Shown: positions 1 through 53,689, numbered from the stretch's first letter. The stretch: 64,000 nucleotides of DNA from an uncultured Chloroflexia bacterium (GCA_963813535.1 CAWEZH010000002.1:864001-928000); one strand, 5' to 3'. The notes: a model not told the origin generated them from the letters alone. Made by a program: numbers and translations.

Positions 1-1922
1 AGGAACCGGTACCACTCGCGGATCGACGGCCCGTCGGCACCCGGCGTCAGGGCCTGCATCTCCACGGCGTCGATCCGCCCGGAGACGATATCGGCGGCGA
101 CCTCCGCATAGGGCAGCGGGAAATGGACCGCCACGGCCAGCCCGCCCTGGGCATGGACCGCGTCGGCCCAGTCGGCCATGAGCCACTCGAGCGCATCGCC
201 CATCCTGGCCTCCGGCGGACCGGCGTTGGCCATGGGGAGCACCGCGTCCGGGGCCCCCAGGAGGCCGATGTGACCGAGCATGTTCTGCCGGTTCTCGCTG
301 CCCATGACGACGAGGTGCTCGCCGGAGGGATCGCCCACCACGGCGACCGGGAGGTCGGTGACGCTCGTGTGGTGATCGCCCCACTGGGTCGCGAGCAGGT
401 TGACGATGGCAACGCCTTCCGCCCGTGCCTGGAGCAGCGCCGACGTCGGCGAGATGAAGTGGACATGGCAGTCGACGGCTGTCCATCCGGCATCGTCCGC
501 GTCGACGCGCTCGATCGGCAGGACCACCGGCGCTCGGTCGCCTCCGACCTCGATCGTGCGCCGCAGCGGCCGGTGGCCGAAGCCATGGACGACCTCGACG
601 TCGACGGTCCCGATTGGCAGCAGGATCGGGAACCGTCCCGGGACGTACGCGTAGGTGTCATCGCCGAGGACCACGTCGGCGCCGAGATCCTCGTTGAGGC
701 CGGGATTGACCTCGTCGCGATGTCCGAGCGGCGGGAGGTAGCGTCCATCCGGCGAAAGGAAACGGATCCGGGCGGGCATCGACCGGCCGCTGACGGCATC
801 CACGATCTCGACCTCGATGCGCTGCGTCGGGGTCGGCAAGGCCTCGATCGTGATGCGGTCGAATCGCTTGCGCTTGCCCTCCGACGGGAGGCGATCGGCC
901 GGCACCCGCGTCCGACCGACGGTCAGGGTCGCGTCCGGTGCCAGCGCGAGGTCGACATCGACCGCGCCGGCCTCGCTGGGCTCGGGGTCCATACCCCAAC
1001 CGATCACGCGCCGGTCACCGTGCACCCGCGGTCGCGGCGACGGTCGGCGCCGGAAGACCTGGCCGAGGTCGATCGCGACCGACGGCGCGGTGCGGCTGGG
1101 CCGATCGATGCGCAAGGTCCTCCGGGGCTCGACGGCGAGTGGTGAGGCGCTGCCGCGGAACGCGGTGACCGCACCGACCACGACACCCCCGCCCGCGCCG
1201 ACGTCGCCGAGCGGCGACATCCGGAGGCGGCGGGCGCTGTCGCCGCTCCCCGCCGGATCGCGCGGGATCTCCATCGTCATCAGCCAGAACGCGATGTCGC
1301 CCGTCGGGCTCGGCACCGAGTCGGAGACCCCGGTCTGGTCCGGACCCCAGCTCCCCGGCAGGATCCCGAGCAGACCGGCGTTACCCGGCTCGGCGTAGCC
1401 CGCCGGTCCGGGCACCGGGTGTGGCCCTCGCCAGTCGAGCGGCGTGTCCATCGGATGGGGCACCGCGGCGAAGGCCCCTTGGCCCCACCCGACGATCCCG
1501 TCGTTGATCTCGAACCGGCGCCGCACGTCCCGCTCGATGGTGCGTCCCGATGCGAGCTCGACCGTGTACCGCCCCAGTGGTTGCCCGACCGGCGTCACCC
1601 ACCCGACGGGCAGGTCGTCGGGACGGCCGGCGACCGGGTCCCGCCACGCGTCGCAGAAGTGAGCCACGACGACATGCGTTGCGTCCCGTGCGCCACGCAG
1701 GTCGATGACGACCTCGCGATCCAGCAGGAGCCAGGGCCGACGGGCGGTCGACGCGGCGAACGCGAACGGGATCCCGCGGAAGACCTGCCGTCCTCGGGGC
1801 AGGCGGCCGACGGGTCCGCCATAGACGGGATGGAGCGTCGACGCCAGGCTCTTCTCGCTCGTCCGGCGGGATCCTCGAAGGTCGATCGGCGTCGCGCGGG
1901 CGGTCACCCGGCGTGCCGTCAT
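1..1922 (-). CDS. CehA/McbA-family (PHP-like) metallohydrolase, 3' end runs off the window
   Basis: Not in the ORF track because it has no stop in the window. Manual translation from ATG 1922 gives GRQVFRGIPF...RRRFEINDG...PARIRFLSPDGRYLPP...AVDCHVHFISP...GSENRQNMLGHIGLLG...AVHFPLPYAE...IDAVE...REWYRF, with a DxHxH metal motif. Confidence 0.75.
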   Translation of the reverse strand, partial: MTARRVTARATPIDLRGSRRTSEKSLASTLHPVYGGPVGRLPRGRQVFRGIPFAFAASTARRPWLLLDREVVIDLRGARDATHVVVAHFCDAWRDPVAGRPDDLPVGWVTPVGQPLGRYTVELASGRTIERDVRRRFEINDGIVGWGQGAFAAVPHPMDTPLDWRGPHPVPGPAGYAEPGNAGLLGILPGSWGPDQTGVSDSVPSPTGDIAFWLMTMEIPRDPAGSGDSARRLRMSPLGDVGAGGGVVVGAVTAFRGSASPLAVEPRRTLRIDRPSRTAPSVAIDLGQVFRRRPSPRPRVHGDRRVIGWGMDPEPSEAGAVDVDLALAPDATLTVGRTRVPADRLPSEGKRKRFDRITIEALPTPTQRIEVEIVDAVSGRSMPARIRFLSPDGRYLPPLGHRDEVNPGLNEDLGADVVLGDDTYAYVPGRFPILLPIGTVDVEVVHGFGHRPLRRTIEVGGDRAPVVLPIERVDADDAGWTAVDCHVHFISPTSALLQARAEGVAIVNLLATQWGDHHTSVTDLPVAVVGDPSGEHLVVMGSENRQNMLGHIGLLGAPDAVLPMANAGPPEARMGDALEWLMADWADAVHAQGGLAVAVHFPLPYAEVAADIVSGRIDAVEMQALTPGADGPSIREWYRF

Positions 1923-40852: not shown

Positions 40853-41692
40853 TCAGTCCTCGATGTCCAGCGAGATGAAGCGCGCACGGTTGAGATCGAT
40901 GTCGGCCTGGAGCTCTGCGACCTTCTGCTCCGTCCCGCCGATGGAGTCAGCACCGGCGATGAAGCGACGCCGAGGCGGCTCCTCGTTGGCGACGATGACG
41001 AGCGCCTCGGCAAGCTTGGCAGGATCACCCGACTGCCTGCCGTCTTGGGCGGTCCATCCGGCCATGAGCGCGGCACGTCGCTCGGCGTAATCCTCGATCA
41101 AGGGCGACGCGTAGTTGGTCGACTGCGGCGTGAGTAGCTCGGTGCGGAAGTAGCCCGGGTTGACGATGGTCGTGTGGATGCCGAACGGCGCAACCTCCGG
41201 TCGCAGCGACTCCATCCAGCCCTCGATGCCGAACTTGGACGCGGCGTACGCCGTCCCGAACTCGAAGCCAGCGAGGCCGGCGCTCGACGAGATGGTGATC
41301 ACGTGACCCGAACGCTGCTTCCGCATGACGGGTAGGACGGCGCGCGTGACATTCATCGGACCGACGAGGGTCGTCGCGAGCTGGCGCTCCATCTGCTCCT
41401 CGGTGAGCTCCTCGAAGAAGCCGGCGTAGAAGTTGCCCGCGTTGTTGACGAGTACGTCGATGCGATCGAAGCGGTCGACCGCGGCCGCGACCGCCGCCTC
41501 GGCGTCCGGCTGGCTCGTGACGTCGAGCTTGACCGCGAGCAGGTAGTCGGTCTCGCCGACGGCGTTCGACACGGCATCGGGGTCGCGCCCGGTCGCGACC
41601 ACCGCGTTTCCTGCCGCGAGCGCAGACTTGGCGATGTCGACGCCCATGCCGCGCCCGGCGCCGGTGATGAACCAGACCTTCTTGTCAGCCAT
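40853..41692 (-). CDS. SDR-family oxidoreductase
   Basis: WFITGAGRGMG, VNNAG, YAASK, NPGYFRT; AAGGAG SD. Confidence 0.93.
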   Translation of the reverse strand: MADKKVWFITGAGRGMGVDIAKSALAAGNAVVATGRDPDAVSNAVGETDYLLAVKLDVTSQPDAEAAVAAAVDRFDRIDVLVNNAGNFYAGFFEELTEEQMERQLATTLVGPMNVTRAVLPVMRKQRSGHVITISSSAGLAGFEFGTAYAASKFGIEGWMESLRPEVAPFGIHTTIVNPGYFRTELLTPQSTNYASPLIEDYAERRAALMAGWTAQDGRQSGDPAKLAEALVIVANEEPPRRRFIAGADSIGGTEQKVAELQADIDLNRARFISLDIED

Positions 41693-43218: not shown

Positions 43219-44604
43219 GTGTCGCGATCGCCCGTCGCCGTGGCACGCTCCCCGGTCGACCTGATCCGCTCGCTGATCGACAGGATCTTCCCGCGCGGCG
43301 CGCTGATCCTGTCCGTCCTGAGCTTCAGCTACTTCATCGCCGGGATCATCCGCAACCGGATCTTCGCGAACACGTACGGCGCAGGCCCCGAGCTCGATGC
43401 GTACAACGCCGCGTTCCGCATCCCGGAGATCGCCCTCGACGTCCTGGTGGCGGCGGGTCTGACCGCCCCGTTCGTGCCGATCTTCACCAGCCTCCGCCAC
43501 GACGACGAGCGCTCGGCGAACGATTTCGGCCGGACGGTGCTCACGGTCGCAGTCCTCGTGATGGCGATCGCATCGGTCGGCATCTTCCTCGCCGCCCCGT
43601 GGCTGTCGACCCAGATCGGTGCCGGCTTCGACGCTCCGACCCGCGAGCTGTACGTGACCCTGGTGCGCGTCAACTGCCTCGCCCAGATCCTGTTCGCGGC
43701 GTCCATCTGCCTCGGCGAGATCCTCGTCGCGAATCGGCGATTCCTGTTCTATGCCCTCGCCCCGATCATGTACACGGGCGGGATCATCGCCGGGACGGTG
43801 CTCGGCGCGGAACGGTTCGGCATCGTTGCGACCGCGTGGGGCGCCGTCCTCGGCGCGGCCCTCCACCTGGGCATCCGATCGATCGGGATCCTGCGGACGA
43901 GCTTCCGACCGCGAGTGTCATTTCACGTCCGGACCGGGGCGTTCAAGGAGTTCATCCGGCTGATGATCCCGCGGATGATCAGCCACCCGATCGAACCGGC
44001 GATCTTCACGTTCTTCACGGCGTTGGCGTCGACCATCGTTGTGGGCGGTGTGTCGTCGATCAACTTCGCGCTCGACTACCAGGTCGTCCCGGTCAGCCTG
44101 ATCGGCATCTCGTTCTCGCTCGCGGTGTTCCCGACGCTGTCCACGGCCTACGCCGACCGGGACGGCTCGGCGTTCCGCCAGGTCCTGACGCGCAACGTGG
44201 TGACGATCGGCGCGCTGACGACGATCGCCGCGATCGTGCTGTTCATCGGCTCGGGCATCCTCGTCGAGGTCCTGCTCGGCGGTGGCGAATTCGGCCCGGA
44301 GGACGTCGCCGTCACGTCGGCGATCGTCGCCGCATTCGCGATCTCGGTGCCCTTCGACGCGCTCGCCTATCCCCTCTCCCGCGGCCTGTACGCCACGCAC
44401 GACACGATCCGCCAGGTCGCGGCGTCGTTCGCGGGGTTCGGCGTCGTGCTGGTCGCCTCGACAGCGCTCGCGCCGAACCTGGGTCTGCTGGCGATCCCGC
44501 TCGGATACGCCTCGGGGATGGTGGTCAAGGACGCACTCCTCGTGGCGTTCCTGCTCCCGCGGGTACGGGCGATCGGTCGGGCACCGAGCGCCGCGATCGG
44601 CTAG
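43219..44604 (+). CDS. murJ: Lipid II flippase MurJ/MviN
   Basis: YGAGPELDAYNAAFRIPE, FVPIF, AVFPTLS, RGLYATHDT; many TM helices. Confidence 0.88.
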   Translation: MSRSPVAVARSPVDLIRSLIDRIFPRGALILSVLSFSYFIAGIIRNRIFANTYGAGPELDAYNAAFRIPEIALDVLVAAGLTAPFVPIFTSLRHDDERSANDFGRTVLTVAVLVMAIASVGIFLAAPWLSTQIGAGFDAPTRELYVTLVRVNCLAQILFAASICLGEILVANRRFLFYALAPIMYTGGIIAGTVLGAERFGIVATAWGAVLGAALHLGIRSIGILRTSFRPRVSFHVRTGAFKEFIRLMIPRMISHPIEPAIFTFFTALASTIVVGGVSSINFALDYQVVPVSLIGISFSLAVFPTLSTAYADRDGSAFRQVLTRNVVTIGALTTIAAIVLFIGSGILVEVLLGGGEFGPEDVAVTSAIVAAFAISVPFDALAYPLSRGLYATHDTIRQVAASFAGFGVVLVASTALAPNLGLLAIPLGYASGMVVKDALLVAFLLPRVRAIGRAPSAAIG

Positions 44605-44608
44605 GTGC

Positions 44609-45568
44609 CTAGCCGGTGCCGGCGCGCGCCTTCGTCGGGACGACCGTGATGAACAGACCGTCACGATCCGGGTACTGGCCCTCGGGTCGCTTCCAGCGCA
44701 GGAAGTTGTCCTGGAGCTCGGCGAACTTCGTGAACGTGCCCGGCGGGTTCGAGGCGCCCCAGATCGACGAGATGCGGGGGAACCACGGGTCGAGGATGTA
44801 GGCACCCTCGATCTTGGTGTCCCTGAAGGTCGCCGGGTCGGCGTCGGCGCGGTAGCCGGTCATGACCCAGGTGTGGGCGCCTCGCCACGCGAGCAGGATG
44901 GCCGGCGAGTGGGTCTTCTTGATCGCGACCGCCGCGTCGCGCAGGGCGTACGTCATCGTTTCGAACGCCCGGACCTCGTAGCCCGGCGCGCCGTACGCGT
45001 CGAGGGCGAGCGCCATGGCGCCCGGGCCCCATTCGCCGTTGTGGCTGTCGGAATAGGCTTCCCACGAATGGACCCGGCCGGCGATCTCGCGCTGGGTCGC
45101 ATTCGAGGTGTCGGCGAGACCCATCACGGCGAGCGCCATCTGGACGCCGGCCGGGGCGCACCAGTCGTTGCGGAGCTCGGAGGCGAACACCTTGTCCGGA
45201 TCGCCCCGCACGATGTCCACATCGACGGGCTTCGGCTTCGGCTTTGGGGTCGGGGTGGGCGTCGGGTCGGGTGTGGGGCTCGCGCTCTCGCCCGGTGCAG
45301 GCGTCGCTGGCACCGGCGTGGGCGTGGGTGGCTCGCTCTCGAGCGGCGGCTCCGTGACCCGTACGGTCTCGACCGTTTCCCGATGCGGCACCGGCCCGGC
45401 CATGAAACGCTCGATCCTGCCGACCACCGCCAGCCACTTCTCCCCCGCCCCGAACGCATCGGTGGCGATGGCGAGGGATGTGAGGGTCGCGCCCACGATG
45501 GCGATGCCCACCGCGCCCACCAGGAAGCGCCGGAAGCGGCTGGGGGCGCGGCGGGACGATCGATTCAC
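44609..45568 (-). CDS. Membrane-anchored or secreted papain-like (C39-like) peptidase with Pro/Thr linker
   Basis: N-terminal RR plus hydrophobic helix, PTPTP linker, WCAPA...AHTWVMTGY...ILDPW (Cys-His-Asp). Confidence 0.65.
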   Translation of the reverse strand: MNRSSRRAPSRFRRFLVGAVGIAIVGATLTSLAIATDAFGAGEKWLAVVGRIERFMAGPVPHRETVETVRVTEPPLESEPPTPTPVPATPAPGESASPTPDPTPTPTPKPKPKPVDVDIVRGDPDKVFASELRNDWCAPAGVQMALAVMGLADTSNATQREIAGRVHSWEAYSDSHNGEWGPGAMALALDAYGAPGYEVRAFETMTYALRDAAVAIKKTHSPAILLAWRGAHTWVMTGYRADADPATFRDTKIEGAYILDPWFPRISSIWGASNPPGTFTKFAELQDNFLRWKRPEGQYPDRDGLFITVVPTKARAGTG

Positions 45569-45602
45569 GCGGGATGGGCTCCTGGGGTGCGGGCTGTCAG
45601 GT

Positions 45603-46304
45603 TCAAGACGCTTGGGACCGCCGAGTTGCTACAGCCCGCGGCGCGGCAAGCGCGGCCAGCCGTGCCAGGCGTTCTCTCCATGCGGTCCGATGACTGGCGA
45701 CGTCCGCGGCGTCGGCCAGCTTGACGTGCGTGACCGTCACGACGGCGCGATCGTCGCCCTTCGGGTCGAAGACGACGTTCACGCGCGTGCCCTCGGACGG
45801 GACGTCGAACCGGGCTGCGCGACCCATCGTCCGCGTCCCGGTCCGCATCCGCAGCCCGAGATCCAGCCACGACGCCCGGCGCTTCGGCTCGACGAACGCG
45901 CGCCACGCGTCCATCGATGGCATGTCGATGGTCTTCGAGACGCTGACTTCGAACCCTTCCGGGCGCTGGTTCGGCGCGCGCATGCCGCGCGCGCGCTCGT
46001 AACCGACGGTGACCGACTGCGACCACCAGCCGTCGATGCCGTGTTCGCCGTTCACGTACCTGGCGATCTCCGTGTGGGTGTGCGAGGTGGCGTCCCAGGC
46101 GTCGAGGATCCGGAACCAGTCGTCCCATCCTCGGCCGGTGCCCTTGACGATCGCCTCTTCGGACACGGGTGGTTCGGCAAGCCGGGGTGGCAAAGGGGGC
46201 GGTGCGGGATCACGCATGAGGTTGCGCCGGGCGGCGGCATAGCGCTCGCCGGTCTTCTCCATCCGGGAGCGGACGGCCCGCTTGCGGGCCTTGTCGGTGG
46301 TCAT
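45603..46304 (-). CDS. Basic N-terminal helical domain plus DUF4287-like and SRPBCC-like domains
   Basis: MTTDKARKRAVRSRMEKTGERYAAARR; TGRGWDDWFRILD, GWWSQSVTVGYE, VSVSKT; AGGAG SD. Confidence 0.75.
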   Translation of the reverse strand: MTTDKARKRAVRSRMEKTGERYAAARRNLMRDPAPPPLPPRLAEPPVSEEAIVKGTGRGWDDWFRILDAWDATSHTHTEIARYVNGEHGIDGWWSQSVTVGYERARGMRAPNQRPEGFEVSVSKTIDMPSMDAWRAFVEPKRRASWLDLGLRMRTGTRTMGRAARFDVPSEGTRVNVVFDPKGDDRAVVTVTHVKLADAADVASHRTAWRERLARLAALAAPRAVATRRSQAS

Positions 46305-46463
46305 CTCGTGTGTCTCCTGACCGGCCGTCGGCCCGGACCCACGCTCCGGAGCCACCGACCGTGGCCAGGCACGAACCGACGACCTCGAGGCGGAGCCCCT
46401 TTGCCTCCACGAGGTCGACAGCGTGAGTGCCGACGACGGAGGTGCGGCGCGAGGTGGCGCCGC
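46305..46463 (-). ncRNA. Candidate structured cis-regulatory 5' leader
   Basis: Downstream of TGGACG-N18-TATCCT; helices of 7, 9, 9, 7+5 and 5 bp (a 5' hairpin, then a nested multibranch structure) ending at the SD. Confidence 0.5.
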
Positions 46464-46576
46464 CGAGAGGATACGCCGAGGTTCGAAATGGCGTCCAGCA
46501 CGGGTCGACCACGGCCCGAGCGGCTGCCTGTGGCACCATCGACCCCACCGCCACGCCGTCACCAGGAGCACCACCC

Positions 46577-47767
46577 GTGGACCGTTTCGAGCCCAACCTC
46601 CGCATCCCCGGCCCGACGTCCCTGCCGCCCAGCGTGCGCACCGCCGGCGCGCGCCAGATGATCAACCACCGCGGTCCGGAGTTCGCGGCGATGCTCGGCC
46701 GGATCCTCGACGGCATCAAGCCCTACTTCGGGACGACCTCGGACGTGGCGATGCTCACCACCGCCGGCTCGGGCGGGCTCGAGGCCGCGATCGTCAACAC
46801 GCTCTCGCCGGGCGATCGGGTGCTCGGCGTGAGCATCGGCTCGTTCGGCGACCGGTTCGCCAAGATCGCCGGGATCTATGGCGCCGACGTGACGAAGCTC
46901 GACGCGGAATGGGGCTATGCGGCGGCCGCCGATGAGATCCGTGAGCGACTGCGCGGGATGCCCGACACCAGGGCCGTCCTGCTCACCCACAACGAGACGT
47001 CGACCGGCGTCATGAACCCGATCGGCGAGCTGGCGGCGGCCATCCGCGCCGAGACGCCCGACGCGCTGATCCTGGTCGACAGCGTGTCCGGTCTCGGTGC
47101 CGTGCCGTTCGAGATGGACGCGTGGGGCGTCGACGTGGTCGTGACCGGATCGCAGAAGGCCTGGATGGCGGCGCCCGGACTATCGATGATCGCGGCCTCA
47201 CCTCGGGCGTGGGCCGCCATGGAACACGCGAGGATGCCGCGGTTCTATCTGGACCTGCGGTCCCACCGCGAGGCGGCGACGGGCGGAGAGACGCCCTTCA
47301 CTCCGGCGATCGCGGTCGTGTACCAGGTCGACGAGGGCCTGCGCCTCATGCAGCAGGAAGGCGCGGAGGCGATCTTCGCCCGCCACGAGACGTGTGCCGC
47401 AGCAGCCCGGGCCGGGCTGGCCGCCCTCGGCTTCGAGTTGTTCGCCGATGCGCGCCACTACTCGCGGACCGTCACGGCCGCGTCCGTCCCCGACGGCCTC
47501 GACTGGAAGGCCTTCAACGGCGCACTCAAGAAGCGCGGCCTCGTGCTGGCCGGCGGCCAGGGCAAGCTCACGGGCCGTATCTTCCGCCTTGGGCATCTGG
47601 GGTCGGTCACGCTCGAGGAGATCCTCGGGGCTATCGGCACGCTCGAGTCCGTGTCGCTCGACCATGGCCTGCCGATCGACCCGGGCACGGCCGTGGCCGC
47701 CGCCCAGCGGGCTGCCCTCGCCAGCCAGGGCGTCGCACGCCTGTCGGTCGCCGGGACCACCGCGTGA
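46577..47767 (+). CDS. Class V aminotransferase (alanine-glyoxylate/serine-pyruvate type, probable phosphoserine aminotransferase)
   Basis: RIPGPT, HNETSTG, VDSVS, TGSQKAW, TPFTP, FRLGHLG. Confidence 0.9.
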   Translation: MDRFEPNLRIPGPTSLPPSVRTAGARQMINHRGPEFAAMLGRILDGIKPYFGTTSDVAMLTTAGSGGLEAAIVNTLSPGDRVLGVSIGSFGDRFAKIAGIYGADVTKLDAEWGYAAAADEIRERLRGMPDTRAVLLTHNETSTGVMNPIGELAAAIRAETPDALILVDSVSGLGAVPFEMDAWGVDVVVTGSQKAWMAAPGLSMIAASPRAWAAMEHARMPRFYLDLRSHREAATGGETPFTPAIAVVYQVDEGLRLMQQEGAEAIFARHETCAAAARAGLAALGFELFADARHYSRTVTAASVPDGLDWKAFNGALKKRGLVLAGGQGKLTGRIFRLGHLGSVTLEEILGAIGTLESVSLDHGLPIDPGTAVAAAQRAALASQGVARLSVAGTTA

Positions 47768-49353
47768 AGGTCCTCGTCGCCGAGGAGGTGGCGCGCGAGG
47801 GCATCGATGTCCTGGCGGGGCAGCACGAGGTCGACGAGCGTTTCGGCTGCACGCGCGAGGAGCTCGCGGCGATCCTGCCCGAGTACGACGCATTGATCGT
47901 CCGGAGTCAGGTCCAGGTCGACGCCGGACTCATCTCGGCGGGGGCCAAGCTGATCGTCATCGGGCGAGCCGGTGTCGGCGTCGACAACGTCGACCTCGAC
48001 GCCGCGACGCGCGCCGGCATCACGGTCGTCAACGCGCCGACCGGCAACACGATCGCCGCCGCCGAGCACACGCTCGCTCTGCTCTACGGTGTGGCCCGCC
48101 GGACTGCCGCCGCCGACGCCAGCCTCCGCCGCGGGGAGTGGAAGCGGAGCGAGTTCACCGGGCTCGAGCTCCGCGGCCGCACGATCGGGATCATCGGTCT
48201 CGGCAAGATCGGCCAGGCCATCGCGCTGCGTGCCCGCGCGATGGAGATGGTCGTGCTCGGCAGCGACCCGTACGTCACGGCGGAGCAGGCCGAGAACCAC
48301 GGCGTCGAGCTCATCGACATTCGGACGCTGCTCGAACGCTCGGACGTCATCACGGTCCACGTGCCGCTGACGCGGGCGACCCGTGGCCTGATCGGCAAGG
48401 CCGAGATCGCACGGCTCAGACCGGGATCGATCGTCCTGAACGTCGCACGCGGCGGGATCGTCGATGAGGCGGCAGTCGCGGCGGCACTCGAGTCGGGCCA
48501 CCTCGCCGGCGCCGGGTTCGACGTGTTCGAGACCGAGCCACCGACCGATTCACCCCTCCTGGCGGCGCCGAACACACTGCTGACCCCCCACCTCGGCGCC
48601 TCGACCGCCGAGGCCCAGGTGCTCGTCGCCGAGGAGGTCGCGTCCCAGGTCCTCGACGTGCTCGAGGGGCGTAGCGCGCGCTATGCCGTCAATGCTCCGC
48701 TGCTCACCCCGGAGACCGCGCGAGCCATCGCCCCGTACCTGCCGCTCGCCGAGATCCTCGGTCGGTTCTTCGCCCAGTTCTCGCGTGGCGGTGTCCGGAC
48801 CCTGACGCTGGAGATCGCCGGCGAGCTCGCGGAGCACGACGGCTCACCGCTCACTGCCGCTGTGCTCCGCGGCCTACTGGAGACCGTGACGACCGAGCGC
48901 GTGAACCTCGTCAACGCCGGAGCCCTGGCGAAGGCCCGGGGCATCACGCTGGTCGAGCGCAAGACACGTGACGCAGGCGCCTACGCCGCCCAGCTGACGC
49001 TCTCGAGCGACGGTTTACCAGGCGGCCGCGGCATCACGGTGGGTGGCACGGTCGCGGCCGGCGAGGCGCGCATCACCCGGCTCGGTGCCTACCGGCTCGA
49101 CATGGAGCCGTCCGACGTGATGCTCATCACCCGTCACACAGACAAGCCGGGCATGGTCGGCCGGGTCGGGGCGATGCTCGGCGAGGCCGACGTCAACATC
49201 AGCGCGATGCACCTCGCCCGTACCCGGCCGCGCGAGGACGCCCTGATGATCCTGGCGCTCGACGACGACGTGCCGCCCGGCGTCGAGGCGGCGATCCGCG
49301 ACCTGGACGCGGTGCTCGACCTTTGGACGATCCGGCTCGGCCACGAGCAGTGA
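47764..49353 (+). CDS. serA: D-3-phosphoglycerate dehydrogenase
   Basis: GRAGVGVDNVD, NAPTGN, GLGKIG, NVARGG, TPHLGAST, ASB and ACT (DKPGMVG) domains. Confidence 0.95.
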   Translation: MKVLVAEEVAREGIDVLAGQHEVDERFGCTREELAAILPEYDALIVRSQVQVDAGLISAGAKLIVIGRAGVGVDNVDLDAATRAGITVVNAPTGNTIAAAEHTLALLYGVARRTAAADASLRRGEWKRSEFTGLELRGRTIGIIGLGKIGQAIALRARAMEMVVLGSDPYVTAEQAENHGVELIDIRTLLERSDVITVHVPLTRATRGLIGKAEIARLRPGSIVLNVARGGIVDEAAVAAALESGHLAGAGFDVFETEPPTDSPLLAAPNTLLTPHLGASTAEAQVLVAEEVASQVLDVLEGRSARYAVNAPLLTPETARAIAPYLPLAEILGRFFAQFSRGGVRTLTLEIAGELAEHDGSPLTAAVLRGLLETVTTERVNLVNAGALAKARGITLVERKTRDAGAYAAQLTLSSDGLPGGRGITVGGTVAAGEARITRLGAYRLDMEPSDVMLITRHTDKPGMVGRVGAMLGEADVNISAMHLARTRPREDALMILALDDDVPPGVEAAIRDLDAVLDLWTIRLGHEQ

Positions 49354-50171
49354 GCGGTCCGCCTGGCGAACCAACCCCACCGCTCATCCCGGACAGGCTC
49401 GACGCGACGCTCGTGCTGGTTCGCCACGGCGAGTCCGAGTTCATCGTCGAGGGACGGTTCCAGGGGCAGGCCGAGACGCCGCTCTCGCCGATCGGGCTGC
49501 GCCAGGCCGCGTTGCTCGCCGAGCGCCTTGCCCATCCCCACGATCCGCCGGCGCTGCCGTTGCCGACCGGGCCACTCCGCGAGATCGTCCATTCGCCGTT
49601 GCGGCGGACGGCACAGACCGCCGAGGCGATCCTCGCGCAGCTCGATGGCGCGCCGCCCTCACGACCCGAGTCGGGTCTCCTCGAGATCGGGCAGGGCGAA
49701 TGGGAGGGCCTGCACCGCGACGAGATCTCCGCACGGTACGGCGACATCCTGGCGGCCTGGCGGCGGACGCCGACCACGACCTGGGCGCCCGGCGGCGAAT
49801 CGATCGCCGAGGTCCAAGCGCGGCTCCGTCCGGCACTCGGTGAGATGCTCGCGACACTGGCGGAAGGCGGCGTCCCGGGCACGCTGGACCGATCGCAGGT
49901 CGCCGGCTACATGGACGAGCTGCCGAGCCACCCCTGGTCGATCGCCGTCGGCCACGACGGGGTGTTCAAGGTCGCGCTGCTCACGCTGTTCGACCTGCCC
50001 CTCGAGCGGTTCTGGATGTGGACGATGGATCTCGCCGCGATCACCGTCGTCGAATTCCGGGCCGGGCGGCCCGTCCTCCGCGCCCACAACCTCACGGGCC
50101 ACCTCGCCGCACTGCTCGACGAGGCGGCCCAGGAGGAGCAGGAACGCCGCAGCCGTAGCGGGGCGCTATAG
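49350..50171 (+). CDS. Histidine phosphatase family (probable phosphoserine phosphatase)
   Basis: LVRHGES, SPLRR, EIGQGEWEG, PGGES, VGHDG; GTGA coupling to serA. Confidence 0.88.
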   Translation: MSGPPGEPTPPLIPDRLDATLVLVRHGESEFIVEGRFQGQAETPLSPIGLRQAALLAERLAHPHDPPALPLPTGPLREIVHSPLRRTAQTAEAILAQLDGAPPSRPESGLLEIGQGEWEGLHRDEISARYGDILAAWRRTPTTTWAPGGESIAEVQARLRPALGEMLATLAEGGVPGTLDRSQVAGYMDELPSHPWSIAVGHDGVFKVALLTLFDLPLERFWMWTMDLAAITVVEFRAGRPVLRAHNLTGHLAALLDEAAQEEQERRSRSGAL

Positions 50172-51218
50172 GGCAGTCGGCGCGGACGCCTCGCTGGCGG
50201 TGGCGTCGGCGAGGATCGCCTCGACCGCGGCGTGGCCGGGCGTATCGCTGCCCCCGGCGCGGCTCCTCCGGCACAGCTCGAGTGGTGTGAGCCCGGATCC
50301 CGGGTCGCGGAGGTTCGGATCAGCGCCATGGTCCAGCAGGCGCCGGACGCCGGCCGGGCGCCCCTCGCTCGCCGCGGTCCGCAGCGGATGGCCACCGAAG
50401 GCCGGGTCGGTGTCGTCGACCGGCACCCCGACACCGATCAGCCGATCGATGACCTCGAGACGCTGATGGTGCGCCGCCATCACGAGGGCACGAACACGGG
50501 CATCCGGAGGTGTCGTGTCGTCCAACCAGGCGCTGACGTCGCCGGCCGCGGCCGCTTCCTCGATCCCGTGGACCTGCGCCCCCGACGCGATGAGCACGTC
50601 GACGACGGCCGTCATGCCGAACACCGCGGCGTGCAGAAGGGCGGTCCCGCCTGGGATCCCGCCGGCGTCATCGGCCGCCCGAGCCTCGATGTCGGCACCG
50701 GCGCCGATCAGGACGCGGGCGACGTCGGGGTCGCCATAGCTCGCGGCGGTGATCAGCGGCGTCTCGGGGTCACCCGGCTGCCCGTCGACCGGCGCCCCCG
50801 CCGCGAGCAGGGCCGAAGCCATGGCCCCGGTGCGATCGACGTCGCGCCAGGCGCCGCTCGCCGTGTCGAGGCGGAGCATCGCGACGTAGCCCAGTGGTGA
50901 GGCACCCTTGGGATGGTCGCCCCAGTGCTCCATCGTCGTCCACGACAGGTCGGGCTCCTCCGACAGCATCGCCTGCAGCCGTCCGACGTCACCGGCGTCG
51001 AGGATCTCCCGCCGCTCGACGTCGCGCTTGAGGCGAGCCCAGCTCGGGAAGCCGTACTCGCGCGCGATCGCGAGCTGTGCACCGGCGAGCGTCGTCGGGG
51101 CGGAGACGGATCGCAACCGCTCGAGCGCTGGTTGCTCGCCCCCCTTGGCGGCACGGACGAGATCCTTCGCCAGCCGCCGAAGCTGGTCGAGATCAGGACG
51201 GGGTGGCAGCGCCGGCAT
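50166..51218 (-). CDS. Ankyrin-repeat protein with N-terminal helical domain
   Basis: LPPRPDLDQLRRLAKDL...AQLAIAREYGFPSWARL; repeats ETPLITAA, TALLHAA, HPLRTAA, TPLELC. Confidence 0.88.
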   Translation of the reverse strand: MPALPPRPDLDQLRRLAKDLVRAAKGGEQPALERLRSVSAPTTLAGAQLAIAREYGFPSWARLKRDVERREILDAGDVGRLQAMLSEEPDLSWTTMEHWGDHPKGASPLGYVAMLRLDTASGAWRDVDRTGAMASALLAAGAPVDGQPGDPETPLITAASYGDPDVARVLIGAGADIEARAADDAGGIPGGTALLHAAVFGMTAVVDVLIASGAQVHGIEEAAAAGDVSAWLDDTTPPDARVRALVMAAHHQRLEVIDRLIGVGVPVDDTDPAFGGHPLRTAASEGRPAGVRRLLDHGADPNLRDPGSGLTPLELCRRSRAGGSDTPGHAAVEAILADATASEASAPTAL

Positions 51219-51343
51219 CGGACGACTCCTTTCGGCGGCCCGTGGTCCGCGAGCAGGGCTCAAGGAGATCGTCGAGCGCGGTCAACGCGATGGGAGGTGG
51301 ACTCGGTCCTGTCCGCGGACCCGGCGGCGCCCTCCCGAACGCC
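51219..51343 (-). ncRNA. Candidate translational-switch 5' leader
   Basis: Extended -10 TGGTAGGAT (51350-51358); 5' hairpin, 8-bp closing stem, and an 11-bp anti-SD segment complementary to the SD. Confidence 0.55.
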
Positions 51344-51373
51344 GGGCCGATCCTACCACTGGGCGGACGGGCC

Positions 51374-53689
51374 TCAGCGCCGCCTCACGCCGCGCCGCCG
51401 GCGCCGGCGCGGGATCAACCGCAGCAGTTGGACGCGAAGCCGTCGGTGAGCATGGCGGAGGGAGGCGAGCTGCTCGTCGGGCAGCAGGCGTCCGCCGTAG
51501 GCCACGTCGACCTTGGCCTGGGCCACGGTCTCGAGCTCGGGCCGGACCATGGGTAGCTCATCGGCCAGCGCGCCCGCGTACTCGTACACGGTCTGGGTGG
51601 GGCGCGGCCCGAACCCGAGGCGGCTGGCCAACCGGGCGACCGAGCCATAGGCGTCGTCCGCCGAGATGGGTCCGCGCGGCCCACGGCGCCAGGCGACGGC
51701 CGCCAACGAACCGACGATGACAGCCAGCATGATCGTGATCCCGATGAACAGACCGATCGGCGCCTGGTTCTGCGGCCTCGGGCCGACGGAGCCACCTGGG
51801 CCCGCGTCGGCTTCGTCGCGCGGGATGGTCGGGATCGCGGCCCCGGCGGCGCTGCCCGACGGGCCGGGCGAGCCACTCGCGACCGGCTCGCCCGACGGGA
51901 TCGGCGCCAGCTCAGGCCGCGCCGGTCCACCCGTGGGATCGAAGTCGATCCAGCCGTAGCCCGGGAAGTAGGCCTGGACCCACGCATGGGCGTCCGCACT
52001 CTTGACGGTCCGGCCGTTCCCGATCGGGTCGGGTGTGCCGGGCAAGAAACCCTCGACGAAGCGCGCCGGGATGCCGAGTTCGCGCAGGAAGACCGTCATC
52101 GTCGAGGCGTAGTACTGGCAGAAGCCGGCGCGCGTCTGGACGAAGCACTCGACGATAGACGCGTCGTTGCATTGCCGGGCCTCGTCGGTCAGGTCGGTGT
52201 CGTAGGTGAACTCGCTCGGATCGCGAAGGGTCGTCTCGATCGTGTCCGCAAGGTCGTACGGGTTGTCGCTGGGCGCGGCGGCCTGGATCTCCGCCAGGAG
52301 CGCGCGCGCCGCCGGACCGAGGGCGCCTTCGGGCAGCGCCGCCTTGCCATAGAGCGCCTCGACAGCGGCGGGATAGTCCCGCCCGGCTGCCCGCAGACGT
52401 TCCTGCGTCCAGCCGCCTTGGGCCTCCGACGCGCGGACGAGCGCCGTCACCGTGTAGGTCGCGTCGCTCGCGTCGCGCACGATCCCGCTCAGGAACCCGG
52501 CATCACCGGTGAGGTGCAGCCGCGTCGTCGAGCTGAAGGAGGTCGGCGGACCGGGCACGAAGACCTCCCGCCGCGAATAGGCCGGGCTGATCGTGACAGC
52601 GAGCGACCGCCGCCCATCCGCGGTGACCGCCTCGGCGGTGTCGGCGAGGACGTCGCTGCCTGCTTCACGGACGACCTCGGGACCCTCCGCCCGCCGCCAG
52701 CCTCGGAGCTGGAACGCGTCGTAATAGACCGCGGCGAGGAACGGCGGCGATGGCTCGCCCGACGGGAACTCGACATGGAGCTGCGTCTGGTCGCCGGTCG
52801 ACCAGACGTTCTGGATCACCGACGAGTCGCCGAACGTCGGGCCGAACGATCGACCCGAACGCGACGCCGGCAGGAAGCGCTCGAGGAACTGGCCCCACTC
52901 CACGACGCGGGCCCCGACGTCGGTCCACGCTCCCGCAAGTGGCGCGGACGACGCGACGCCGGTCAGCAGGAGCGACCCGGTGATGGCCGCGATGATGAAC
53001 ACCGTCCCACCCCGGAGATACAACGCCGAGATCGCGGTCGGATCGCCGATCCGTCGGCGCAACCAATCGGCCTGCTCGTCGAGCGTGTGGAACCGGACGA
53101 GCAGGAACAGACTCGCGATCGAGAAGATCACCAGATAGGTCAGCTGGTCGCGGACGGTCAGGGCCATGTTGGCGAGCAGCAGCAGCCCGATGATCACGAC
53201 GGCATTGATCGGCCGGCGATGGCCGAAGGCGGCGTAGCTCGCGAACTGCGACGACCCCCACGTCACGAGACCCAGCACGAGCAGGTGATGCCCGGAGTAC
53301 TGGGTGAAGAGCAGCCCGGCCAGGGCGAGATCGGACCAGGCGCCGACGACCTCGTCCGTCGTCTTCTGGAAGAGGATCGCCGGTGCGGCGCCGGTGGGAA
53401 TCATCGCCCAGCCGACGAGCAGCGGGACCAGCAGCGCGGCGAAGACCGCTCCGACGAGGTGGGTCGTCCAGCGGCCCCATCCCGCGAGCGGGCCGATGAA
53501 CCCGGCGACGACACCGCCGATGGCCGCCCAGAACAGGAAGTCGGTGAGCTCGTCCCGCCCAAGGACCAGCAGCGCGTCGTCGAGCGACCAGGCGAGCGTC
53601 GCGCAGATGAGCAGGACGAGGCCGACCGTGAACCAGCCGTCGAGCCGACGCAGCGAATACATCAGGTCACGTCCGTCGCGGGTGGTCAT
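51374..53689 (-). CDS. Membrane transglutaminase-like (TgpA-type) protein
   Basis: N-terminal TM helices, GFCQYYAS, HAWVQAYFPGYGWIDFDPT, C-terminal DUF4129-like region. Confidence 0.9.
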   Translation of the reverse strand: MTTRDGRDLMYSLRRLDGWFTVGLVLLICATLAWSLDDALLVLGRDELTDFLFWAAIGGVVAGFIGPLAGWGRWTTHLVGAVFAALLVPLLVGWAMIPTGAAPAILFQKTTDEVVGAWSDLALAGLLFTQYSGHHLLVLGLVTWGSSQFASYAAFGHRRPINAVVIIGLLLLANMALTVRDQLTYLVIFSIASLFLLVRFHTLDEQADWLRRRIGDPTAISALYLRGGTVFIIAAITGSLLLTGVASSAPLAGAWTDVGARVVEWGQFLERFLPASRSGRSFGPTFGDSSVIQNVWSTGDQTQLHVEFPSGEPSPPFLAAVYYDAFQLRGWRRAEGPEVVREAGSDVLADTAEAVTADGRRSLAVTISPAYSRREVFVPGPPTSFSSTTRLHLTGDAGFLSGIVRDASDATYTVTALVRASEAQGGWTQERLRAAGRDYPAAVEALYGKAALPEGALGPAARALLAEIQAAAPSDNPYDLADTIETTLRDPSEFTYDTDLTDEARQCNDASIVECFVQTRAGFCQYYASTMTVFLRELGIPARFVEGFLPGTPDPIGNGRTVKSADAHAWVQAYFPGYGWIDFDPTGGPARPELAPIPSGEPVASGSPGPSGSAAGAAIPTIPRDEADAGPGGSVGPRPQNQAPIGLFIGITIMLAVIVGSLAAVAWRRGPRGPISADDAYGSVARLASRLGFGPRPTQTVYEYAGALADELPMVRPELETVAQAKVDVAYGGRLLPDEQLASLRHAHRRLRVQLLRLIPRRRRRRGVRRR

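Follow-up and report, generated by a model that had tools for sequence, protein, structure and literature searches.

Our study reports on two genes, A and E, in a 64,000-nucleotide stretch of DNA from an uncultured Chloroflexia bacterium (GCA_963813535.1 CAWEZH010000002.1:864001-928000; hereafter the window), which has a G+C content of about 71%. Each gene begins with a cassette comprising a promoter, a pseudoknotted leader RNA and a small helical module at the N-terminus of the encoded protein, and comparison across genomes demonstrates that these are two separate cassette families of analogous design. Their distribution suggests that each cassette is inherited as a unit and has been shuffled onto differing C-terminal domains (the cargo) in many soil-type phyla. 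We tentatively propose that each N-terminal module binds the leader of its own mRNA and so sets a translational feedback, an autogenous operator in the form of a movable unit; the regulatory role of the cassettes is one that we infer from sequence comparison. A preliminary description, made from the window alone, had drawn attention to the layout common to both genes, namely a promoter, a GGCG...CGCC hairpin at the predicted transcription start, a CACCTCC motif, a long-range stem near the Shine-Dalgarno sequence (SD) and then a short helical N-terminal module, and had taken it for one shared, one-component regulatory cassette. The layout is real, with a TAnnnT hexamer beside the hairpin in both leaders, and is confirmed by the comparative evidence; the interpretation is partly supported, the cassettes belonging to two families rather than one.

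The leader of gene A is about 160 nucleotides (nt) long and contains four helices, P1 to P4, together with a 7-base-pair (bp) pseudoknot between loops (Table 1). The helices were defined by hand on alignments of A-type leaders (A1, raw MAFFT output, and A2) and then tested. In 16 sequences from the genus, 92.1% of the cells in P1-P4 are paired, against 34-54% when the partners are slid along the alignment. Across 57 multi-phylum sequences, in an alignment fitted to the covariance model of this RNA (R1) and hence leaning towards that model, the figure is 92.5% against 39-57%, with 16 two-sided (compensatory) pairs and none of 500 shuffles as high. Helix P2 exemplifies the covariation, its CCUCC/GGAGG strands changing to CCCC/GGGG and CUGCC/GGCGG. 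The P3 loop is conserved as CYCACGC, and RNAalifold flagged its pairing with GCGUGRG about 40 nt before the ATG in alignment A1; the overall fold that it returned for this raw alignment mixed the P3 hairpin with the pseudoknot and was set aside. A full 7-bp complement of the loop lies at -60 to -25 in 62 of 72 distinct leaders, where other 7-mers reach 9.5% and shuffled windows 5.7%, and the pairing is kept by compensatory change (CUCACGC/GCGUGAG, CUCGCGC/GCGCGAG, and U-A and G-C variants). Because the complementary strand usually sits in the loop of a hairpin of its own (P7), we read this contact as a probable loop-loop pseudoknot; flanking arms of at least 4 bp are present in 79% of leaders against 46% of shuffles, which gives P7 moderate support. 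With its filters off, R1 finds a single strong match in the window (83.1 bits), the next best (20.5 bits, 40902-40981, minus strand) lying inside a coding frame and being taken as chance; it has two matches in the bacterium's own genome.

The second conserved leader was uncovered by comparing the gene E leader by blastn with the upstream regions of E-type loci and printing those regions. It is a double-pseudoknot RNA of about 135 nt, different from the A-type leader, in which an anti-SD strand located just 5' of P4 pairs with the SD. Its six helices are paired in 89.0% of cells in a MAFFT alignment of 39 sequences (A6) and in 89.6% in a model-fitted alignment of 51 (A9), against 32-50% with partners slid (38-50% in A9), and they contain 14 and 23 compensatory pairs, respectively. 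The 3' strand of the pseudoknot PK1 is the CCUCC of the CACCUCC motif and covaries with its partner to CAGG/CCUG, CAAG/CUUG and CGAG/CUCG. A further hairpin with the SD in its loop (P5) was dropped, as 64% of its cells are paired and 38 of 500 shuffles reach as high a value. The E-type covariance model (R2) has one match in the window and one in the own genome; a weak match, at G000:C2:525102, scores 20.6 bits (E 0.35).

The CACCUCC motif is one strand of a covarying helix in both RNAs. It resembles the anti-SD core of 16S rRNA; mimicry of rRNA was considered and rejected, neither RNA model finding another site in the own genome. The promoter assigned to each gene close to the predicted transcription start is also borne out in both families. 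Of 40 diverse A-type leaders, 32 have a TAnnnT hexamer that ends 4-10 nt before the start of R1, compared with 1 of 160 control windows; among the 51 aligned E-type leaders, 48 have TA...T in columns one to six of the model. As this hexamer sits at a fixed distance upstream in both families, each cassette probably brings its own promoter and its RNA probably begins at the 5' end of the transcript. A sigma-70 consensus scan had returned no promoters, and a terminator scan no terminator-like sites in 45400-51600; the former is superseded, because the comparative analysis of the -10 region found hexamers at fixed positions.

The protein modules encoded directly behind these RNAs are small. The A-type module is a basic stretch of 30 residues, 10 of them lysine or arginine, for which AlphaFold2 (AF2) predicts a helix (3-18), a turn (TGE) and a second helix (22-30), a helix-turn-helix-like arrangement, with a predicted local distance difference test (pLDDT) score of 87-96 over residues 1-30 and 93.7 for the whole protein. 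The E-type domain of about 80 residues is predicted to form four helices (10-25, 29-36, 44-54 and 60-84). Entropies at codon positions 1, 2 and 3 are 0.59, 0.38 and 1.03 bits for the A module and 1.07, 0.94 and 1.47 bits for the E domain; since the third positions are the most variable, both modules are under selection at the protein level. The comparison of the two N-terminal domains that had been suggested as a check found them unrelated: BLASTP gave no alignment at E<=100, and hhalign of the module alignments (A3 against A7) gave a probability of 0.19%. Neither do the RNA models cross over. R1 matches none of 65 E-type loci, and nothing on the gene E leader even with filters off, while R2 matches none of 98 A-type loci, and so what had been seen as one cassette is two.

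That the layout could be assigned to no named system still holds for both families. No Pfam or NCBIfam family covers either module, and Rfam 15 (4227 models) gave no match on the leader in eight diverse A-type loci, no match in eight diverse E-type loci and, in E-value mode over positions 44000-53000 of the window, one spurious microRNA (miRNA) match outside the leaders (23.9 bits against a gathering threshold of 96).

The main evidence for the cassettes as units is their coupling across genomes. A search of 41 related genomes found orthologues of protein A in 11, and matches to its residues 1-32 alone occur on other genes, including one at a second locus in the own genome; among the translated matches, this start of about 30 residues is found on proteins of about 450 residues and on others, and some 170 nt before the ATG are conserved along with it across the differing genes. 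We scanned 185,579 species genomes with a degenerate pattern for the A-type peptide (alignment A3), which confirmed at least 503 stretches, the best 80 of which were examined. R1 matches all of these 80 loci, which were found by their peptide, on the strand of the gene and ending 70-86 nt before the ATG (23-87.5 bits). Judged by record titles, they belong to Chloroflexia/Limnocylindrales, Actinomycetota (Nocardiopsis, Isoptericola, Planobispora, Solirubrobacteraceae), Gemmatimonadales, Myxococcota, Acidobacteriota and others. A profile of the module recovers 3221 clusters at E<=1e-3 among 1.84 billion representatives, and nearly all of the matches begin at residue 1. In 58 longer representatives the cargo is BtrH_N (17), DUF4287 (10), DUF4872 (8), AHSA1 (4), HEAT (1) or DnaJ (J-domain; 1), the others having no family.

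The E-type family behaves in the same manner. A full-length orthologue of protein E exists in only 1 of 40 related genomes, and its first 85 residues match 386 proteins at E<=1e-3, in which the other domains are ankyrin, GNAT, DUF5990 with DUF5655, or nothing known; HEAT also occurs among the cargo of the family as a whole, and some members have none. A peptide scan of the genome collection returned 63 E-type loci, titled as Chloroflexota, Actinomycetota (Kibdelosporangium, Rhodococcus rhodnii), Acidobacteriota, Planctomycetota, Myxococcota, Gemmatimonadota and a Dokdonella. R2 matches 57 of the 63, ending exactly on the start codon, and 19 of the 57 lie outside its training set. The coupling is also seen when the search begins from the RNA: all three new R1 matches are followed by an A-type module and all six new R2 matches by an E-type domain, with ankyrin, HEAT, DUF5655 or no cargo behind them. 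The last is the case at L186 (G113:C2:40533-43662), where an E-type domain of 80 residues stands alone (open reading frame 1261-1503, minus strand) behind a complete leader RNA (1501-1630, minus strand); the neighbouring gene there is convergent and membrane-like. Genes that share the cargo and lack the module have no such leader: a DUF4287/SRPBCC paralogue (L012) has no R1 match (at most 15 bits), and nine ankyrin genes without the E-type domain have no R2 match above 15 bits, in both cases with filters off. The statement that the leader travels with the N-terminal domain whatever the cargo is thus upheld in 80 of 80 and 57 of 63 loci, and in the nine new matches found in reverse. Judged again by record titles, Chloroflexota, Actinomycetota, Acidobacteriota, Gemmatimonadota, Myxococcota and Planctomycetota contain both units, and the distribution of these is patchy; of 151 evenly sampled genomes of the phylum, four have an R1 match and seven an R2 match.

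We consider the autogenous operator to be the simplest reading of these data, because two unrelated RNA folds, each tied to one module, are kept from promoter to start codon while the cargo changes. As in known operators of this kind, a structured RNA lies at the ribosome-binding region of the mRNA and co-occurs with the encoded protein. In this model the N-terminal module would be an RNA-binding domain that recognizes the leader of the mRNA encoding it. The anti-SD strand of the E-type RNA would pair with the SD, and this helix would stack beside the P4 hairpin, the loop of which is captured by the 5' domain; since the fold sequesters the SD, a protein that stabilizes it would repress initiation of translation. 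In the A-type RNA, the 5' domain would capture the loop of the hairpin about 40 nt upstream of the ATG.

Several observations weigh against this model. Many of the 80 A-type and 63 E-type loci are close relatives and are not independent, and a few of the 80 may come from genomes used to train R1, the cross-phylum loci being independent. The coupling could reflect the physical contiguity of a block of about 250-400 bp which recombines as one piece. A conserved helix sequestering the SD was not found in the A-type RNA family: the long closing stem near the SD that the preliminary description had pointed out is present in leader A of the window (locus L001), with 10 contiguous pairs, and in 34 family members such stems average 7.1 pairs against 6.6 in shuffles, which is not above the controls. 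Among PDB sequences neither module has a relative; for the predicted E structure, the one covered by the structure search, Foldseek gave no match in the PDB at E<=1e-3 and VIA-align reached a Z of 4.6 at best, with none of 5 or more, and this absence of an assigned fold does not show the fold to be new. Since neither module matches a known RNA-binding family or fold, it is genomic context and charge that argue for binding of RNA. In addition, 6 of the 63 E-type loci (L115-117, L140, L166 and L172) have no leader RNA or a partial one, so that the E-type domain can exist without it. Lastly, leaders that are compact, contain a double pseudoknot and have invariant bases at their junctions would be compatible with small-molecule riboswitches as well.

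That the leaders are orphan riboswitches is, in our view, unlikely. In this case they would gate translation in response to a small molecule or ion, and the modules would travel with them by block recombination or through sharing the physiology of the ligand. Both RNAs are conserved, covarying 5' leaders, compact and pseudoknotted, which extend from the transcription start to the SD or ATG; the anti-SD:SD helix of the E-type RNA is typical of translational expression platforms, bases such as CAAAGGGG and those of the CYCACGC loop are invariant, and many riboswitch classes show a similarly patchy spread over several phyla. Against this, the downstream genes have no metabolic or transport theme, the N-terminal module being the only thing that they have in common; riboswitches are not known to be coupled to a protein module in a strict and cognate-specific way; and two unrelated RNAs would each need to have become coupled by accident to an unrelated module.

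Somewhat more doubtful is that the leaders are read by another factor (a trans-acting protein, a small RNA, temperature or the ribosome) while the modules serve in targeting, as degrons or in DNA binding, both parts being needed to control these proteins. The E-type domains that lack the RNA, the palindrome of P1 at the transcription start, which could double as a DNA operator, and the want of resemblance between either module and known RNA-binding folds are all compatible with such a division of labour. It would, however, require an additional factor conserved across at least five phyla, and it leaves unexplained why each RNA family is paired with one module family only.

A more speculative reading, which we regard as improbable, treats the cassette as a portable unit of RNA tag plus protein tag. 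Here the nascent module would capture the leader of the very mRNA under translation. The outcome would be either feedback acting strictly in cis, at a set output for each mRNA, or a lasting ribonucleoprotein (RNP) in which ankyrin, HEAT, SRPBCC or acyltransferase cargo keeps the leader as its cofactor, and the unit would be moved between genes like a promoter or a signal peptide. That two unrelated RNA and domain pairs share a layout and have overlapping types of cargo (HEAT in both, DUF4287 in the A-type and DUF5655 in the E-type) suggests that more such families may exist.

The IS110 bridge RNA and the IscB omega-RNA/HEARO, which are 5'-encoded partner RNAs of mobile-element proteins, are discussed in a bioRxiv preprint (10.64898/2026.10.21.760802). 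By analogy, the leader could be a functional partner which the N-terminal module keeps hold of, in a stable RNP that localizes, scaffolds or guides the cargo; we rate this as quite improbable. As in those systems, the gene of the protein expected to bind the structured RNA follows directly behind it, and the two are strictly found together; the cargo consists mostly of binding or scaffold domains (ankyrin, HEAT, SRPBCC, J-domain), both RNAs have variable hairpins between conserved cores, and at L186 the RNA and the domain form a unit by themselves. Unlike those systems, the cassettes have no transposon ends, the domains found include no nuclease, recombinase or other enzyme acting on nucleic acids, and there are two (R1) and one (R2) copies in the own genome. 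Processing or a free RNA species is without support, and an RNA that ends at the start codon and contains the SD is what would be expected of a cis-acting operator.

Chance pairing in G+C-rich DNA, with nothing functional behind it, is already refuted and has next to no probability left, since covariance-model matches of 23-120 bits recur at the same position in 80 and 57 loci of several phyla, with 16 and 23 compensatory pairs and no shuffle in 500 as high. In its favour are the closing stem of the A-type family, which does not exceed its controls, and the window taken by itself, on which the cassettes would have been dismissed: CACCTCC is not enriched (16 copies against 11.3 +/- 3.4 expected), and in the comparison of fold energies with shuffled controls, which the preliminary description had called for, leader A is marginally more stable than its shuffles (z = -2.19; 2 of 200 fold as well) and leader E no more stable (z = -0.25; 73 of 200). 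At 71% G+C the fold energy of a single sequence is uninformative, and we count it as evidence neither way. Thus two results that had been named beforehand as telling against the idea were obtained, unrelated domains and a leader E no stabler than shuffles, and its core survives because it is covariation, and not fold energy, that carries the evidence.

The proposed operators may be compared with several known systems. Autogenous translational operators include the S15, L20 and L10 leaders and the operator of threonyl-tRNA synthetase (ThrRS). Like the ribosomal-protein operators, the cassettes have a structured and pseudoknotted leader that adjoins the SD and would be bound by the product of the same gene, and RNA and protein co-occur across taxa; in contrast to them, the proposed binder is a small portable N-terminal module on unrelated, non-ribosomal cargo, and neither model finds a second (primary) RNA target in the own genome. 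The antiterminators BglG, SacY and LicT combine an N-terminal CAT RNA-binding domain with sensor PRDs, and their target is a RAT element within their own operon's leader. The arrangement within one polypeptide of a short N-terminal module, here putatively RNA-binding, and variable or sensor domains is similar, as is the place of the RNA in the leader of the own gene. However, CAT is absent from the Pfam matches of the whole proteins and of their N-terminal pieces, there is no intrinsic terminator in the leaders, the RNAs are much larger and pseudoknotted, and the E-type platform would act by SD sequestration rather than by antitermination. Lambda N binding to boxB and HIV Tat binding to TAR provide examples of arginine-rich N-terminal peptides that bind RNA hairpins, and the A-type module, with its approximately 30 basic, helical residues at the extreme N-terminus beside a structured RNA, is reminiscent of these; it differs in being associated with a multi-helix RNA of about 160 nt in cellular genes with their own promoters, where no antitermination signals were found. 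The 'Downstream-peptide' (glutamine-II) motif is named for a conserved peptide encoded behind it. Like this motif and other orphan riboswitch candidates, the cassettes join a conserved, pseudoknotted leader revealed by comparative genomics to a conserved downstream peptide, in the E-type with an SD-sequestering platform; they are set apart by the lack of a match among the Rfam 15 models, by a peptide that is the N-terminus of multi-domain proteins with differing cargo, and by the missing metabolic theme.

The preprint on partner RNAs also mentions in passing an unnamed RNA cluster, #566,452, that immediately precedes unannotated proteins whose N-terminal domain is YndB-like (10.64898/2026.10.21.760802); this may or may not overlap the A-type RNA, behind which the YndB/SRPBCC domain is C-terminal. 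Apart from that mention, a literature search with the peptide strings of the modules, DUF4287, DUF4872/BtrH_N/YndB and ankyrin or riboswitch-candidate motifs returned nothing on these elements by title or abstract, and the coupling of RNA and domain is to our knowledge undescribed. Should each module bind its leader, the cassettes would be the first case known to us of an RNA operator being shuffled onto different proteins together with its RNA-binding domain, as one module, and would provide a new handle for the annotation of thousands of 'hypothetical' proteins and a compact, orthogonal RNA-protein pair for synthetic biology. Should the leaders be riboswitches instead, they would constitute two new, widespread classes with an unexplained protein association. 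The cultured carriers, Nocardiopsis, Isoptericola and Planobispora for the A-type and Kibdelosporangium, Rhodococcus rhodnii and Dokdonella for the E-type, make the system testable.

Table 1. Features of genes A and E, their cassettes and the neighbouring genes, in window positions. GC3, G+C content at third codon positions; ORF, open reading frame; aa, amino acids.
Feature	Position	Strand	Basis or remark
Gene A	45603-46304	-	233 aa; GC3 frame and ORF lists
Gene A, -10-like hexamer TATCCT	46468-46473	-	TAnnnT at fixed position across the family
A-type leader, 5' domain	46380-46463	-	R1 83.1 bits, E 5e-14; covariation
A-type P1 (GGCGC/GCGCC)	46461-46457 / 46450-46446	-	covariation
A-type P2 (CCUCC/GGAGG)	46442-46438 / 46408-46404	-	covariation
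A-type P3	46434-46428 / 46420-46414	-	loop CUCACGC 46427-46421
A-type conserved CAAAGGGG	46403-46396	-	invariant in alignments
A-type P4	46399-46396 / 46390-46387	-	covariation
Closing stem, leader A, GGUCGUCGG / CCGACGGCC	46384-46376 / 46331-46323	-	sequence reading; stops 4 nt before SD
Hairpin P7 (CCGGA/UCCGG)	46333-46349	-	loop GCGUGGG 46344-46338, complementary to P3 loop
Gene A, SD AGGAG; ATG	46318-46314; 46304-46302	-	GC3 frame; orthologues start at same ATG
A-type N-terminal module, 30 aa, basic	46215-46304	-	alignment A3; profile search
Gene A cargo: Pro-rich linker, DUF4287-like helical domain, AHSA1/SRPBCC	45603-46214	-	Pfam
Gene E	50166-51218	-	350 aa; GC3 frame and ORF lists
Gene E, -10-like hexamer TAGGAT	51350-51355	-	19 nt past stop codon of upstream gene (51374-53689)
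E-type leader RNA	51216-51355	-	R2 83.5 bits, E 8e-16; sole match in window
E-type P1	51343-51340 / 51329-51326	-	98% paired; adjoins -10 box
E-type PK1, P1-loop GGAGG / CCUCC 3' of P3	51335-51331 / 51297-51293	-	89% paired
E-type P2, GGUCCGCG / P4 loop	51321-51314 / 51251-51244	-	95% paired
E-type P3	51309-51306 / 51302-51299	-	100% paired
E-type anti-SD CUCCUU / SD AAGGAG	51267-51262 / 51231-51226	-	74% paired; 4 compensatory pairs
E-type P4	51259-51256 / 51241-51238	-	84.5% paired
Gene E, ATG	51218-51216	-	sequence
E-type N-terminal domain, ~80 aa	50964-51218	-	alignment A7; AF2 pLDDT 86.8
Gene E cargo: ankyrin repeats	50166-50963	-	Pfam Ank_4 1.5e-19, Ank_2 1.7e-16
GGCG...CGCC hairpin	A 46461-46446; E 51343-51326	-	sequence reading
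CACCTCC	A 46444-46438; E 51299-51293	-	sequence reading
Class-V aminotransferase gene	46427 or more likely ~46574 to 47767	+	Pfam
SerA-type phosphoglycerate dehydrogenase gene	47782-49353	+	PGDH_inter and ACT domains; Pfam
Histidine-phosphatase gene (His_Phos_1)	49323-50171	+	Pfam
Transglutaminase-like/DUF4129 gene, upstream of gene E	51374-53689	-	Pfam, NCBIfam

The cargo of the two genes in the window differs in how clearly it can be assigned. The ankyrin repeats of protein E score 70.1 (Ank_4), 61.0 (Ank_2) and 58.3 bits (Ank) in Pfam. In protein A, the AHSA1 match is marginal (22.6 bits against a cut-off of 22.1; 30.1 in the relative L075), and the DUF4287 match, at 17.5 bits, is below the cut-off of 27, which the orthologues L108 (31.4) and L085 (32.0) pass. 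HEAT cargo is found behind both types of cassette, and DUF4287 occurs behind the A-type and DUF5655 behind the E-type; DUF4287 and DUF5655 occur together in some proteins, which hints that the two cassettes may serve one physiology.

Genes in the window were called by GC3 frame analysis together with ORF lists and translations, as ORF lists alone are useless at this G+C content. Genes A and E flank an operon on the plus strand which, by Pfam, encodes the class-V aminotransferase, SerA and the histidine phosphatase. A functional tie of the cassettes to this serine operon was rejected, as synteny is confined to close relatives: 17 of 99 A-type and 3 of 71 E-type loci have the aminotransferase, histidine-phosphatase or transglutaminase-like gene within flanks of about 1.2-1.5 kb. 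Membership in a defence system was also rejected, PADLOC having returned ankyrin-repeat matches only. The best NCBIfam match of the aminotransferase is BhcA-like (328 bits, below cut-off), with serC_3 at 54.7 bits, and that of the histidine phosphatase is PspA-like (97 bits, below cut-off); the histidine-phosphatase gene and gene E, which are on opposite strands, share 6 nt where gene E ends. The longest ORF of the aminotransferase (GTG 46427) would overlap the A leader. Its true start is probably near 46574, since the rise in GC3 comes only at about 46530 and the alignment with homologues begins near residue 58, which leaves a divergent region of about 270 nt (46305-46573) between it and gene A.

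Both genes had been described as monocistronic. A co-directional gene (44609-45568, minus strand), syntenic with A in 18 related loci, begins 34 nt downstream of gene A, so that gene A may not be. Its product has a linker rich in Pro and Thr and matches Peptidase_C39_2 weakly, with a sub-threshold score of 20 bits. BtrH_N, a cargo family of other A-type proteins, is said in the title of one paper to be among the papain-like proteinases.

Some individual loci depart from the general pattern. In the A-type family, one protein (P0142, 205 residues) contains two matched module stretches, which may be a tandem duplication. At L099 (2193-2369; Gemmatimonadales) a long inverted repeat lies about 700 nt downstream of the A-type start and, on either strand, scores against models of plant miRNA precursors (MIR831, 54.8 bits, where the gathering threshold is 100); it is probably just a long hairpin.

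Among the E-type loci that lack a complete leader, L172 has no E-type RNA upstream. In L115, L116 and L117, which are titled Limnocylindrales, Chloroflexia and Solirubrobacterales, an identical upstream sequence of about 180 nt with a long perfect hairpin replaces the RNA; this identity could result from recent transfer or mis-binning, and the three could represent a natural 'RNA-less' variant. L140 and L166 retain the 3' half of the leader only (P4, the 3' strand of P2 and the SD), having lost P1-P3, and may be decaying or variant forms. In L165 and L173, the RNA is kept and the domain has its first half only (LPPRPDLDQ..AK.L), with a diverged second half (AQLAIAREYGF.SW elsewhere); these two loci may help to map the half of the domain that matters for the RNA.

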